From IMG/VR virus record IMGVR_UViG_3300035208_008180: a stretch of 64,000 nt of DNA, one strand, 5' to 3'. Shown here piece after piece: positions 1-48,365 of this stretch (position 1 is its first letter; each line of letters starts with the position of its first letter). Origin of the DNA: a virus (lineage: Duplodnaviria; Caudoviricetes). Below the pieces are notes generated by a model that saw only the letters and a list, made by a program, of their open reading frames with translations, was not told where the DNA came from and ran no database searches. The translations under genes and the position numbers were made by a program.

Positions 1-329
1 CCCATCGCTTGAATTTTATCCACCAATGTTAAATGTCCATCTGCCTCTAGGTCGGCATTGGTTTTCGATCTCCTCTCTTGCTCTTTTTTGTATTCTTCTT
101 CTAGCTTGTGAAGAATTTCCATATTATGGGCCAAAGCCTTTTGTTTCCTTAATTGTTCTTTATATGGATTTATGATAGGCATAATTTTTTCGACAGACCC
201 TGCTACATCTTTATCCAAGCTTTCATCATATTTCTTCTGTTTGCGTATTGCTTCTCGCCTACGCACAATCTTACCTTTGGCTTCTTTTTCTCGACGCTTC
301 TTTTTTCGCTCTTGCAATTTTTTATTCAT
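1..329 (-). CDS. Hypothetical basic/coiled-coil protein, runs off window start (MNKKLQERKKKRREKEAK...)
   Basis: Manually translated open frame from ATG at 329, which overlaps the stop of the upstream gene (TAATG). Confidence 0.7.
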   Translation of the reverse strand, partial: MNKKLQERKKKRREKEAKGKIVRRREAIRKQKKYDESLDKDVAGSVEKIMPIINPYKEQLRKQKALAHNMEILHKLEEEYKKEQERRSKTNADLEADGHLTLVDKIQAM

Positions 330-43900: not shown

Positions 43901-43976
43901 TAGCACCAGGGGGATTCGAACCCACCACTACCCAGTGTTTAAAACTGGTGACTTCTGCCAATTGGTCTATGGTGCC
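43901..43976 (-). tRNA. tRNA-Leu(TAA), short variable region
   Basis: CCAGT-TTTAAAC-ACTGG; 76 nt; A73. Confidence 0.85.
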
Positions 43977-43981
43977 ATGAG

Positions 43982-44055
43982 TAGCGAGGAGGGGATTCGA
44001 ACCCCTACTGTCTGGTTCCTAAGACCAGTGCCGCTGCCAATTGGGCTACCTCGCC
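43982..44055 (-). tRNA. tRNA-Leu(TAG), short variable region
   Basis: CTGGT-CTTAGGA-ACCAG; variable region ACAGT. Confidence 0.88.
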
Positions 44056-44057
44056 AT

Positions 44058-44375
44058 TTATGATTGTTCTATATCCTGAACATCAACTCTTTTCCTAAGT
44101 TCTTTGAAAATTTCGTGTGCAGCTTCTTTTCCAGTTGTTGCAGCATCAAGCTTCTTTATCAATTCTGTTGTGCCTAATTTCCACACAGCATATTCTTCAT
44201 CGGTTTCACAGAGTATTAAATTCAGTTTACCAAACCGAACTACAGTCGAATGAGGATTGTCAGACAACCTTCGTAACGATTGTGCTGTTCCTGTGTTGAC
44301 TCGGATAACAAGGTCTACATCTGAGTTTGCGTTTGGCTTGCCGTAAGCTCTACTGCCCGTAATAAATGCGTTCAT
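44058..44375 (-). CDS. Minimal nucleotidyltransferase (MNT, pol-beta superfamily)
   Basis: ITGSRAYG.....SDVDL. Confidence 0.8.
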   Translation of the reverse strand: MNAFITGSRAYGKPNANSDVDLVIRVNTGTAQSLRRLSDNPHSTVVRFGKLNLILCETDEEYAVWKLGTTELIKKLDAATTGKEAAHEIFKELRKRVDVQDIEQS

Positions 44376-44650
44376 TTTTTTACCTTGTCATCGTTCACTG
44401 GCCAATGCTTTCTGCCTTCTGAAACATGCTCTAATGCTTCTCGGATTATTTCAGGTGATTCCTCAATCTCAACAAAAGCCCACCCTGGCGGGCAATTGCC
44501 TACATTTTTCTTGGGAGATACCATCACCCCCAAGTGTTCGCCACAAGTTGCTAGCCCGCCACCAATCGATTTGAGAAATTCCGCATAACTGAGATTATCT
44601 GGAACTTCCAAATCATTCCCATGTTCATCCTTGCGACCAATGACTTTCAT
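44372..44650 (-). CDS. Hypothetical protein
   Basis: GGAG Shine-Dalgarno site + MKVIG start. Confidence 0.6.
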   Translation of the reverse strand: MKVIGRKDEHGNDLEVPDNLSYAEFLKSIGGGLATCGEHLGVMVSPKKNVGNCPPGWAFVEIEESPEIIREALEHVSEGRKHWPVNDDKVKK

Positions 44651-44662
44651 TTTTTCTCCAAG

Positions 44663-44748
44663 CGGAAACGGAGGGAGTCGAACCCCCAAGGCTTTTTACA
44701 CTCATCTGTTTTCAGAACAGGTTTCGTCACCAATCGATTTGCGTTTCC
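44663..44748 (-). tRNA. tRNA-Ser(TGA), atypical (C33)
   Basis: Ser-type body similar to Ser(GGA); loop TCTGAAA. Confidence 0.75.
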
Positions 44749-44753
44749 GAAAG

Positions 44754-44827
44754 TAGCACCAGAAGGATTCGAACCTTCACTGAACAGTGTTTGAAACTGT
44801 TGCCGCTGCCAATTGGGCTATGGTGCC
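44754..44827 (-). tRNA. tRNA-Leu(CAA), short variable region
   Basis: ACAGT-TTCAAAC-ACTGT; variable region TCAGT. Confidence 0.88.
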
Positions 44828-44832
44828 ATAAG

Positions 44833-44906
44833 TAGCATCGGTGGGATTCGAACCCACAACCTCTACATTTTGAGTGTAGCGACTCTGCCAGTTGGTCTAC
44901 GATGCC
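44833..44906 (-). tRNA. tRNA-Leu(CAA), short variable region
   Basis: CTACA-CTCAAAA-TGTAG; variable region AGGTT. Confidence 0.88.
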
Positions 44907-44912
44907 AAAATA

Positions 44913-45608
44913 TCAAACAACCCCTAGTTGTGTCAGGATTGTCGCATGTTGCTCAGTCATGGTTGTCAGTTGTGTATTGAGGGATGCAAGTGATGCTTCC
45001 AAATCCGACTTCTCTGCCAGTATTACAGCATGCTGTTCTGTCAAGACTGCTAATTGTGCATTTAAAGATTCAAGAGATGCTTCCAAATCTGCTTTTTCTA
45101 TCAACAGTTCTTCCGCTGGTGTTTCTCCACTTGCATCAATGCCCGCATTTACAACCACCAGTCTTTCAGTCTTTGTTAGTATGTCAGCATTTATCAGGTC
45201 AATAGATGCTCCACTTGCATCAACGCTCGCACTTACAACTGCCAGTCTTTCAGTATTTGTTTGTATGCCAGGATTTATCGCATTTATTGCGGCAACAAGT
45301 TGTCGCAATTGATATTCTAATGAAAACAGTAATGCCATGCCCCCAACAACTTGAGCAGCTAAAGGGTGAGTATAAACCAATTCCCAAATATTATCAAAAA
45401 ATTCAACTTTGTCCTGATCTGCACCCGGATATAGTTGTTTTGTGGTGTAATTGTAGGGTCTAAAAACAATTGTCAATGGTTGTTTTGTAGCATCAACGTT
45501 TATCGTTTGCACGTTAAATGCCACAATATAAAGCTCGTTATACACAGCCTCAACAGTGGCAGGAACTATTAGTGGGCTTGGATTAGGAATCAGAGGTAAA
45601 TCAGCCAT
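44913..45608 (-). CDS. Hypothetical protein with internally duplicated coiled coil
   Basis: TERL.VV.A..DASG x2; EK.DLEASL.SLN.QL...TEQHA.IL x2. Confidence 0.7.
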   Translation of the reverse strand: MADLPLIPNPSPLIVPATVEAVYNELYIVAFNVQTINVDATKQPLTIVFRPYNYTTKQLYPGADQDKVEFFDNIWELVYTHPLAAQVVGGMALLFSLEYQLRQLVAAINAINPGIQTNTERLAVVSASVDASGASIDLINADILTKTERLVVVNAGIDASGETPAEELLIEKADLEASLESLNAQLAVLTEQHAVILAEKSDLEASLASLNTQLTTMTEQHATILTQLGVV

Positions 45609-45622
45609 ATTTTTTCCTTTGT

Positions 45623-45844
45623 TTAATTCAAATGTACTGTACCACGACCTTTGGTGGTTCTTACGATTTTTGTTATACCATCTTTTTCAACTTTTACAAT
45701 ACGAAGTGGATCACTTGGATACAAAGAGTCAAATGCGTCTACATAACCATCGCAATAAGCTCTTGTTTTATGCTCTATAAAAGATACTTTACGCCATCCA
45801 AGATCGCCACTGTTTCTCTCTACGTAATACATTTTTTTCTCCAA
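45623..45844 (-). CDS. Hypothetical protein
   Basis: ORF between tRNAs. Confidence 0.55.
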   Translation of the reverse strand: MEKKMYYVERNSGDLGWRKVSFIEHKTRAYCDGYVDAFDSLYPSDPLRIVKVEKDGITKIVRTTKGRGTVHLN

Positions 45845-45845
45845 G

Positions 45846-45920
45846 TGCCACGAGCGAGATTCGAACTCGCACTGTCTAGTATCTCGGACTAGCGACTCCT
45901 ACCAATTGGTCTACCGTGGC
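45846..45920 (-). tRNA. tRNA-Leu(GAG), short variable region, C33
   Basis: CTAGT-CCGAGAT-ACTAG. Confidence 0.8.
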
Positions 45921-46104
45921 GTACATCACATATAATGATCTTGATCTTTTTCTCGCCAATATTCATCCTCTTTTTGCCGATACTCAGCATACTCTGCGTT
46001 TGTATAGTATTGATACGATCCACAGGCACACGGATTACAATTACATATTCTGCATACTGCTGCATTATCTATATCATTCATTATTATTTCTCGGGTGTGT
46101 AAAG

Positions 46105-46178
46105 TAGCGAGGAGGGGATTCGAACCCCTACTGGATAGTTCCTGAAACTATTGCCGCTGCCAATTGGGCTACCTCGCC
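46105..46178 (-). tRNA. tRNA-Leu(CAG), short variable region
   Basis: ATAGT-TTCAGGA-ACTAT; body nearly identical to Leu(TAG) at 43982. Confidence 0.88.
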
Positions 46179-47030: not shown

Positions 47031-47123
47031 TGGGAAGTGACGGAATCGAACCGCTCAAAGTCATACCACCCCAAATTCTTTAACGACTAACAGATTTACA
47101 GTCTGCCTTGGGGAACACCTCCC
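47031..47123 (-). tRNA. D-armless tRNA-Tyr(GTA)-like RNA with extended variable arm
   Basis: GGGAGGT/ACTTCCC-A acceptor, GCAGA-CTGTAAA-TCTGT, TTCGATT T-loop; only 10 nt in place of the D-arm. Confidence 0.75.
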
Positions 47124-47127
47124 ATTT

Positions 47128-47284
47128 TGGTTCTCAGTGTGTTATTACACCAAAGGCAAGAGCGACAATACACACTCTTTGCGACACCCAGTATTGTTCT
47201 TTCCAGGTGATTGCTTTTCGCCACGCAGCTAACGCTACCACTCTTTAAATGCTGGACACTCCTAATCCCACATCCTGAGAACCA
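47128..47284 (-). ncRNA. Unknown structured RNA inside the tRNA array
   Basis: Terminal inverted repeat TTGGTTCTCAG/CTGAGAACCAA; spaced like a tRNA between two tRNA-Tyr genes. Confidence 0.55.
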
Positions 47285-47286
47285 AG

Positions 47287-47368
47287 TGTGCCGAGCCGGA
47301 ATTGAACCGACAAGTCCCGAAGGAGTCTCGTTTACAGCGAGGTGGGCCTGCCAATGCCCAATCGACAC
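47287..47368 (-). tRNA. tRNA-Tyr(GTA)
   Basis: CTCG-CTGTAAA-CGAG; variable arm TCC-TTCG-GGA. Confidence 0.88.
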
Positions 47369-48047: not shown

Positions 48048-48365
48048 CTATTCCTGTATTTGCTTGATAACCATGAAATGTTGTTTTTTGCCGATTCGAA
48101 TTATTCCCCATCCTGGCCAAATGAATTTAACCAGCGATTCAGGATCGGTTACTTTTTCGCCATTCCAAGACAAAGAACCTTCTTTAACTTTGCGTCTAAC
48201 TTCACTGATGCTTGGTAAGGCACCGCCATCAACACAAATCTGTGCTATTTTTCCATCCTGCACTGTTTTAGGACGCATCCACCACCACATGCTGGCAAAT
48301 GTTTCTTGACAAACAGCCTTGGGCTTGTTTAGTATTTCCCATAATTCATCAAATGTCAACATCAT
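48048..48365 (-). CDS. Stand-alone S4-like RNA-binding protein resembling the TyrRS C-terminal domain
   Basis: PSISEVRRKVKEGSLSWNGEKVTD...IIRIGKKQHF. Confidence 0.75.
   Translation of the reverse strand: MMLTFDELWEILNKPKAVCQETFASMWWWMRPKTVQDGKIAQICVDGGALPSISEVRRKVKEGSLSWNGEKVTDPESLVKFIWPGWGIIRIGKKQHFMVIKQIQE

Follow-up and report, generated by a model that had tools for sequence, protein, structure and literature searches.

A conserved phage tRNA-Tyr that probably folds around a core pseudoknot in place of the D hairpin

The gene at 47031-47123 on the minus strand of the window (the whole 64,000-nt stretch of DNA that was analysed) very probably encodes a tRNA for tyrosine that belongs to a conserved phage class lacking the cloverleaf form. 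The molecule would be charged and would decode tyrosine codons, and its unusual core may, more speculatively, let it escape defence nucleases. The D hairpin is absent. The strand found in its place has its complement in the variable-arm loop, and the two are predicted to form a helix in the tRNA core. The same layout occurs in at least about 95 phage sequences.

Architecture of the rewired tRNA-Tyr gene

The features of the gene and of its neighbours are listed in Table 1, where tRNA position n corresponds to window coordinate 47124 - n. Read on the minus strand, the 5' half of the gene is GGGAGGUG UU CCCCAAG GCAGA-CUGUAAA-UCUGU U AGUCGU UAAAGAA. The 3' half continues after UAAAGAA with UUUGGGG UGG U AUGACU UUGA GCGG-UUCGAUU-CCGU CACUUCCC A.

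Table 1. Coordinates of the rewired tRNA-Tyr gene, its structural elements, and two neighbouring genes in the window
Feature	Coordinates	Strand	Remarks
Whole rewired tRNA-Tyr(GUA) gene	47031..47123	-	93 nt including discriminator A; no CCA encoded
Acceptor stem, 5' strand GGGAGGUG, positions 1-8	47116..47123	-	Pairs with 47032-47039
Pseudoknot helix, 5' strand CCCCAAG, positions 11-17	47107..47113	-	Partner 47069-47075 in the minimum-free-energy fold
Anticodon arm GCAGA-CUGUAAA-UCUGU	47090..47106	-	Anticodon GUA at 47097-47099
Variable-arm stem, 5' strand AGUCGU, positions 36-41	47083..47088	-	6 bp with 47059-47064
Pseudoknot helix, 3' strand UUUGGGG, positions 49-55	47069..47075	-	Within the variable-arm loop; family covariation
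UGG, positions 56-58, directly 3' of the pseudoknot strand	47066..47068	-	Candidate G18 G19 equivalent
Variable-arm stem, 3' strand AUGACU, positions 60-65	47059..47064	-	Partner AGUCGU
T arm GCGG-UUCGAUU-CCGU, 4-bp stem	47040..47054	-	Family pairing
Acceptor stem, 3' strand CACUUCCC	47032..47039	-	Discriminator A at 47031
Canonical class II tRNA-Tyr(GUA)	47287..47368	-	ARAGORN; Rfam tRNA model, 40.4 bits
Free-standing TyrRS C-terminal (S4-like) domain protein	48048..48365	-	105 aa; PF22421, 29.1 bits (cut-off 27)

The acceptor stem is built from GGGAGGU and ACUUCCC, extended by an eighth pair between G8 and C85 and followed by a UU linker. The T stem contains four pairs, formed by G70, C71, G72, and G73 with U84, G83, C82, and C81. 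The acceptor/T branch of the window gene is accordingly of the 8/4 type (G8-C85 and a 4-bp T stem). Along with this 12-bp branch, the gene displays the other hallmarks of a tRNA, namely the acceptor stem, a 7-nt anticodon loop, and a T loop of the UUCRANY type. The gap between the acceptor and anticodon stems is 10 nt long (9 nt in the 8/4 reading) and forms no hairpin. The gene departs in this respect from the four-arm cloverleaf, which has a D stem-loop between these two stems. CCCCAAG occupies the place of the D arm and directly adjoins the anticodon stem.

The first-pass annotation had recognized an acceptor stem, a GTA anticodon arm, and a T arm, all of which read intact on the minus strand, and had described the D arm as replaced, as is indeed the case: CCCCAAG is found instead, without a D hairpin. 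The proposed variable stem AGTCGT/ATGACT holds at 6 bp, while the variable region, put at about 33 nt, is actually 34-35 nt long. The complementarity claimed between TTGGGG of the loop and CCCCAA is present and extends over seven pairs rather than the six listed (CCCCAAG/UUUGGGG, the last pair being G-U). The TGG reported to follow TTGGGG corresponds to the UGG at positions 56-58, whose GG is invariant in the family. One point of that first reading is refined, in that the acceptor/T branch is 8/4 and not 7/5.

The minimum-free-energy fold computed with ViennaRNA contains the CCCCAAG/UUUGGGG helix, and its overall energy is ordinary (z = -0.83). When the variable region is shuffled, a helix of at least 7 bp abutting the anticodon stem appears in 2.7% of the shuffles (P about 0.03). 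The pseudoknot match is therefore only suggestive from the window sequence alone, and it is the comparative evidence that lifts the pseudoknot above chance.

Standard models do not recognize the gene. ARAGORN makes no call at 47031-47123. The gene has no match of 29 bits or more to the Rfam tRNA model (RF00005) and fails the tRNA covariance threshold. Its best match in the Rfam clan is tRNA-Sec, at a sub-threshold 24.6 bits (gathering score 47), and four family members are likewise sub-threshold in Rfam at 25-28 bits. The gene is not an assembly artefact, because exactly the same sequence recurs in an ENA 228-kb contig and in a Logan contig, making three assemblies in total. A 414-bp stretch that includes both the rewired and the canonical tRNA-Tyr genes is also identical in these two contigs.

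A family of rewired tRNA-Tyr genes

To collect relatives, IMG/VR was scanned with a pattern defined by just two elements, the tyrosine anticodon loop and the T loop, set 30-58 nt apart, a gap larger than in a normal tRNA-Tyr. The pattern is blind to the D region and to the content of the variable loop, and hence to the pseudoknot pairing. The scan yielded at least 119 stretches, and at least 79 distinct sequences among the matches combine a perfect or near-perfect acceptor stem with 8-11 nt between the acceptor and anticodon stems. A covariance model, R1, was built from the phage family with the pseudoknot pairs left out of the model, and it added 12 further members at the same loci. Members score 60 bits or more on R1, and the window gene scores 70.3 bits (E 2e-15). 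The canonical tRNA-Tyr next to it is not reported by R1 at E <= 0.01, and the only other R1 match in the genome bin reaches 30.6 bits.

In nearly all of these genes, the anticodon stem is preceded without a gap by a strand of 6-7 nt whose complement lies in the variable loop. The variable-loop strand is directly followed by UGG in the main family and by A(N)UGG in a second family, whose helix is of unrelated sequence (ACGGCA with UGUCGU). An ungapped parse distinguishes 49 different pseudoknot helices and 37 different variable stems, and UGG follows the helix in 64 of the 84 genes parsed.

Judging from its 7-bp complementarity followed by UGG and from its R1 score, the window gene is a bona fide member of the pseudoknotted tRNA-Tyr class. 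Within the class it falls into a subfamily whose variable arm is longer, comprising a 6-bp variable stem and a 34-nt variable region. A metagenome scan revealed three more members of this subfamily, L218, L219, and L220. L219 and L220 have the same 6-bp variable stem, whereas that of L218 is 5 bp long. The L218 gene contains one C·A mismatch. In L219, the pseudoknot pair C14-G52 is changed to U-A, a C-G pair of the T stem is changed to A-U, and the acceptor stem is also altered; all of these changes are compensated.

Other search strategies were less productive. Queried by BLAST with the 2.3-kb neighbourhood, 50,697 phage records gave only ordinary tRNA-Leu matches, and IMG/VR contained no copy of an exact 23-nt pattern spanning the D-less junction. 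No homolog turned up when the DNA of 60 relatives of the genome bin and of five large IMG/VR phage records was searched. The protein family P0001 is too broad for finding relatives, with identities of at most 48%; P0003 and the sigma-factor fusion have no IMG/VR relatives, and the only P0003 homolog lies on a 1.2-kb contig. Searching the phage records by blastn with one typical member returned nothing at E <= 1e-3. A looser blastn reached Pseudomonas phage Lyrsu03, whose deposited genome contains an unannotated member.

The 'tRNA-Pseudo-2' of phage KVP40 was rejected as a member, as it has a D hairpin of 5 bp and its R1 score is 47 bits, compared with 60 or more for members. A different rearrangement of tRNA-Tyr is seen at L194:11262-11357 on the plus strand (IMGVR_UViG_3300013938_000011; 33.7 bits on R1). 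There the acceptor stem is followed by GGUGUU, whose complement GACACC is found further on, behind the anticodon arm and a D-loop-like AGUGGUAA. It looks as if the D loop and the 3' D strand had been relocated as one block in this gene.

Covariation supports a pseudoknotted core

Pairing was assessed in two alignments. In the MAFFT alignment A4 of 65 sequences, the pseudoknot helix is 96.9% paired, and five of the seven pairs have changed on both sides. In alignment A7, in which 71 distinct sequences were fitted to R1, the helix is 95.6% paired, again with both-side changes at five of seven pairs. Alignment A7 is free of any lean towards the pseudoknot helix, because R1 lacks the pseudoknot pairs. 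One such pair in A7 occurs as CG in 43 sequences, UA in 13, AU in 9, UG in 3, and GC in 2; another occurs as UA in 39, CG in 17, AU in 7, and GC in 4. The window gene itself presents a both-side change, having A-U at the near-invariant C-G pair of the family that adjoins the anticodon stem.

The covariation score of the whole structure is 0.600, as against 0.161 with shuffled partners (none of 500 reaching 0.600) and at most 0.134 with slid partners. The two strands of the same gene pair over 6.6 bp on average, versus 4.5 bp for swapped partners.

The variable stem is 89.7% paired in A7, with both-side changes at three of four pairs, although this alignment was fitted to the stem and the figure leans its way. 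The 37 distinct stems of the ungapped parse provide independent backing. Among the 71 sequences, the acceptor, anticodon, and T stems are 99.6%, 99.7%, and 84.5% paired. The eighth acceptor pair, formed with the base after the T stem, is 100% paired (GC 56, AU 7, UG 5, UA 2, CG 1), and the branch is therefore 8/4 in the family as well. Across the 65 sequences, neither the closing C-G of the pseudoknot helix nor the GG that comes after it ever varies, and the U of UGG is at least 90% conserved.

These patterns of compensatory change argue that both the pseudoknot helix and the variable stem are under selection. Given the order of their strands in the chain, the two helices make a pseudoknot if formed together. 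A conserved pseudoknotted structure is thus well supported by covariation. The first-pass annotation had offered covariation of CCCCAA with TTGGGG among homologs as the test of its proposal, and the outcome is positive. It had also suggested that the missing D-stem strand and the conserved GG are supplied from the variable loop, in a rewired fold rather than a pseudogene; the 49 distinct helix sequences and the invariant GG support this idea.

Proposed fold and comparison with known tRNAs

On their 5' side, the pseudoknot helix and the anticodon stem are formed by one uninterrupted stretch of chain, and for this reason the 5' pseudoknot strand matches the 3' strand of a canonical D stem (positions 22-25) in topology. 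The strand from the variable loop and the GG after it therefore correspond to positions 10-13 and to G18 G19, which come in the same order in a canonical tRNA. The same continuity would let the pseudoknot helix take the stacked position that a D stem holds on the anticodon stem. Both helices would meet the variable stem at one junction with linkers of 0-1 nt, as in class II tRNAs. The chain coming from the acceptor stem would enter the pseudoknot helix at its far end, near the usual place of U8. A 7-bp helix could replace both the 3-4-bp D stem and the tertiary layers stacked above it. By this topology, the GG would be brought to the T loop and the L shape would be kept.

The closest known relative is the canonical class II tRNA-Tyr(GUA), represented by RF00005, the window gene at 47287-47368, and the genes of T5 and T6. 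The two share the GUA anticodon in a CUGUAAA loop, A73, G1-C72, and a long variable arm, as well as the UUCGAUU T loop, a 12-bp branch, a length of about 85-93 nt, and a location in phage tRNA clusters. However, the rewired tRNA has no D hairpin, and its D-like helix is a pseudoknot that joins a strand preceding the anticodon arm to one in the variable loop. The GG comes after the anticodon arm on the 3' side, the branch has the 8/4 and not the 7/5 form, and the gene is sub-threshold in Rfam and missed by ARAGORN.

The (8/4) and (9/3) tRNAs and allo-tRNAs are found in bacteria and phages, also within phage tRNA clusters (Mukai et al., NAR 2017, PMC5389517). They share with the rewired tRNA an 8-bp acceptor stem, a 4-bp T stem, a long variable arm, and a resemblance to tRNA-Sec in the eyes of covariance models (PMC5389517). 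Yet they are cloverleaves with a normal D arm and are of Ser, His, Cys, or Sec identity (PMC5389517), whereas the rewired tRNA-Tyr has no D arm. The window gene thus possesses the 8/4 branch of the allo-tRNA group and neither its D arm nor one of these four identities. Neither a pseudoknot nor such a tRNA-Tyr is mentioned by Mukai et al. (PMC5389517).

D-armless mitochondrial tRNAs, such as metazoan mt-tRNA-Ser(AGY), also lack the D hairpin (PMC7609411, PMC4013460). They are shrunken, with a short connector in place of the arm and no relocated strand (PMC7609411, PMC4013460). In contrast, the rewired tRNA is of full length or longer, rebuilds a 6-7-bp helix from a relocated strand, and keeps the GG. 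The tRNA-like structure at the 3' end of tymoviruses (Tymovirus 3' TLS, RF00233) is likewise a tRNA shape built with a pseudoknot. It forms the 3' ends of plant-virus RNA genomes, has its pseudoknot in the acceptor arm, and decodes no codon, unlike the rewired tRNA, which is a free-standing gene in a tRNA cluster of a DNA phage and has its pseudoknot in the core. No Rfam match to a viral tRNA-like structure was seen at the locus.

All known bacterial tRNAs have been stated to adopt the cloverleaf (2024 paper, PMC11551756). No published description of a pseudoknotted tRNA-Tyr was found in the searchable literature, which is mostly without subscription journals.

Genomic setting of the window gene

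The window covers bases 192001-256000 of a 340,072-bp contig (C200) with 40% GC. The genome bin averages 64% GC, and the contig carries 65 tRNA genes and a tmRNA according to ARAGORN. These two features suggest that the contig is probably a huge phage binned with an unrelated bacterium.

About 20 tRNA genes cluster on the minus strand at 39.3-48.6 kb, with the rewired gene among them, and only Leu, Ser, Phe, Tyr, and Thr tRNA genes are represented. The canonical tRNA-Tyr is situated 160 nt upstream and is transcribed in the same direction, so the window copy could be dispensable. The rewired gene was rejected as a recent duplicate of this neighbour, as the two align poorly. The spacer of about 156 nt between the two Tyr genes (47128-47283, minus strand) is closed by a long terminal helix, UUGGUUCUCAG/CUGAGAACCAA. 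The spacer is conserved in L220, where about 20 substitutions cluster in internal segments, and 47128-47283 has no Rfam match.

The gene of the TyrRS C-terminal domain protein is located 0.9 kb upstream of the rewired gene, and the protein is 93% identical in L220. Beside the rewired tRNAs of other phages, a homolog was found only in this close relative, and the protein was accordingly rejected as a general partner of the class. No TyrRS catalytic domain is present on the 340-kb phage contig, which rejects a phage-encoded TyrRS as an explanation.

Other tRNA genes of unusual form are found in the cluster. ARAGORN calls several tRNA-Leu genes of 74-77 nt without a long arm. Such tRNA-Leu genes of 73-79 nt, lacking the long variable arm, are present in the window at 43901-46178 (minus strand) and in L105, L106, L107, L115, L219, L298, L299, L302, and L316. 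They share arrays with the rewired tRNA-Tyr, including the window cluster and planctomycete arrays, and therefore two of the three long-arm species occur there in altered bodies. An 85-nt tRNA-like gene at 44664-44748 (minus strand), missed by ARAGORN, matches the Rfam tRNA-Sec model at 38.1 bits (gathering score 47) and has an odd anticodon region, UCUGAAA. This gene may represent another non-standard tRNA body.

Distribution of the class in phage and cellular genomes

The class is strongly enriched in viral contigs. When the same pattern was applied to one genome per prokaryote species, it returned 120 stretches and only seven rewired genes. Five of the seven cellular matches lie beside tRNA genes or in tRNA arrays, and five of the seven are in Planctomycetota. 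L326, one of the Planctomycetota matches, belongs to the cultured Neorhodopirellula pilleata Pla100 (NZ_SJPM01000014.1) and L302 to a Leptospirales MAG, on a 6.4-Mb contig; in these two cellular assemblies, the rewired tRNA-Tyr is part of arrays of 20-22 tRNAs.

ARAGORN, run on 25 loci, never calls the rewired gene. Nine of the ten arrays with at least 10 tRNAs contain no ARAGORN tRNA-Tyr, and the rewired gene fills the gap in the array with a spacing as tight as that of its neighbours. For example, L106 encodes 36 tRNAs for 19 amino acids, with only Tyr missing, and L107 encodes 22 tRNAs, with only Tyr and Met missing. From this arrangement, the rewired gene appears to replace the ordinary tRNA-Tyr in these phage arrays. 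L155 and L176 resemble the window in having a canonical tRNA-Tyr beside the rewired one. Most members encode CCA; the tRNAs of the window phage do not.

Tyrosine identity and alternative explanations

The identity set of bacterial TyrRS consists of the GUA anticodon, A73, G1-C72, and a long variable arm. The window gene has each of these four elements, and in the family A73 is invariant and G1-C72 is found in 69 of 71 sequences. Since this set is present, the host TyrRS would be expected to charge the rewired tRNA, which would then decode UAY codons. The host enzyme would be needed for charging, because no TyrRS catalytic domain is encoded on the contig.

It is unlikely that the gene encodes a tRNA mimic acting outside translation, either as a decoy for a tRNA-Tyr nuclease or as a ligand of the TyrRS C-terminal domain protein. 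The C-terminal domain of TyrRS binds the variable arm and the anticodon stem. A free-standing domain of this kind is encoded close by, in a phage already equipped with a canonical tRNA-Tyr, and both circumstances would suit a mimic. Phage tRNA-Tyr has moreover been proposed as a decoy or supplement against Septu (PMC13096335, Discussion). However, the rewired gene is the only tRNA-Tyr in most near-complete arrays, which argues for decoding. The anticodon loop, A73, G1-C72, the 12-bp acceptor/T branch, and the standard T loop are all conserved, and the absence of the domain protein beside rewired genes other than those of the window phage and L220 also speaks against this reading.

The relative L220 (Ga0172381_10094097, 51-143, minus strand) bears on whether the window gene is a decaying tRNA-Tyr pseudogene. 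It derives from a related phage that shares 80.5% identity with the window over about 770 bp (BLAST) and 95% over 420 bp around the genes. Its rewired gene is 94.6% identical to that of the window. Five changes fall in the first 22 nt and are uncompensated, three breaking pairs and two giving wobbles, and the sequences are identical from the anticodon loop on. The 5' strand of L220, CCACACG, is a perfect complement of the GUGUGG strand of other members. Because of this fit to another allele, the L220 gene resembles the product of recombination between two alleles, or of their chimeric assembly, with the breakpoint inside the gene. The changes also fit relaxed constraint.

In a pseudogene, the 3' half of the D arm would have been deleted and extra sequence inserted into the variable arm; the copy would be redundant, and its complementarity would be due to chance. 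The uncompensated changes in L220 are consistent with such decay, as are the canonical tRNA-Tyr 160 nt upstream, the rejection of the gene by tRNA finders, its ordinary fold energy, and the chance complementarity in about 3% of shuffles. Decay is nonetheless very unlikely in view of the about 95 independent phage sequences that have the same architecture and strong covariation in the helix, and of the phages in which the rewired gene is the sole form of tRNA-Tyr. In addition, every stem of the window copy is intact, the gene is identical across three assemblies, its identity to L220 exceeds that of the stretch in which it is embedded (94.6% within 80.5%), and the divergence of L219 is fully compensated.

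A tRNA without a pseudoknot, forming one helix at a time as an extended anticodon arm or as a D-armless cloverleaf with a variable hairpin, is highly improbable: the nested minimum-free-energy fold does form CCCCAAG/UUUGGGG and not the variable stem, and the support for the helices is comparative, their coexistence in one molecule being deduced, but both covary, at five of seven and three of four pairs, respectively, and the variable stem takes 37 distinct forms.

Possible role in evading defence nucleases

A charged and decoding tRNA-Tyr with a pseudoknotted core might be of advantage under attack by the host. Septu and the PtuAB of retron-Eco7 stop phages by cutting tRNA-Tyr in the variable arm, and the tRNA-Tyr of T5 is resistant through a distinctive variable loop (PMC13096335, PMC11555353). 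By analogy with these E. coli nucleases, the rewired variable arm and core may be a poor substrate for host nucleases that cut the variable arm of tRNA-Tyr. A variable arm locked into the core could escape such enzymes, and phage translation could continue when the host tRNA-Tyr, and perhaps the canonical copy of the phage itself, is destroyed. An anti-defence role of the rewired tRNA-Tyr is speculative.

The tRNA cluster of the window carries all three long-arm species (Leu, Ser, and Tyr). The local context, including these species, the short tRNA-Leu, and the TyrRS domain, is suggestive of a role in defence. We tentatively consider, as a possibility with the odds against it, that the gene is an active tRNA whose pseudoknotted core evolved specifically to evade immune nucleases that target the variable arm and core of class II tRNAs, and that it belongs to a dedicated locus, made up of the rewired and canonical tRNA-Tyr, the short tRNA-Leu, and the tRNA-binding domain of TyrRS, which resupplies all long-arm species in nuclease-resistant bodies.

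The class has several implications. Standard finders systematically omit its tRNA-Tyr from phage sets, which biases studies of codon usage and of tRNA complements. The rewired fold offers a natural scaffold for the engineering of orthogonal tRNAs. Experiments are made practical by cultured carriers, namely Pseudomonas phage Lyrsu03 and the tRNA array of Neorhodopirellula pilleata Pla100. Because tRNA-Tyr and its variable arm are known targets of Septu and the retron, the class also provides a concrete, testable case of a phage altering tRNA architecture to escape immunity. The cloverleaf is treated as universal outside mitochondria, and a covarying, pseudoknotted tRNA-Tyr that replaces the normal one in many phages would be a natural exception.
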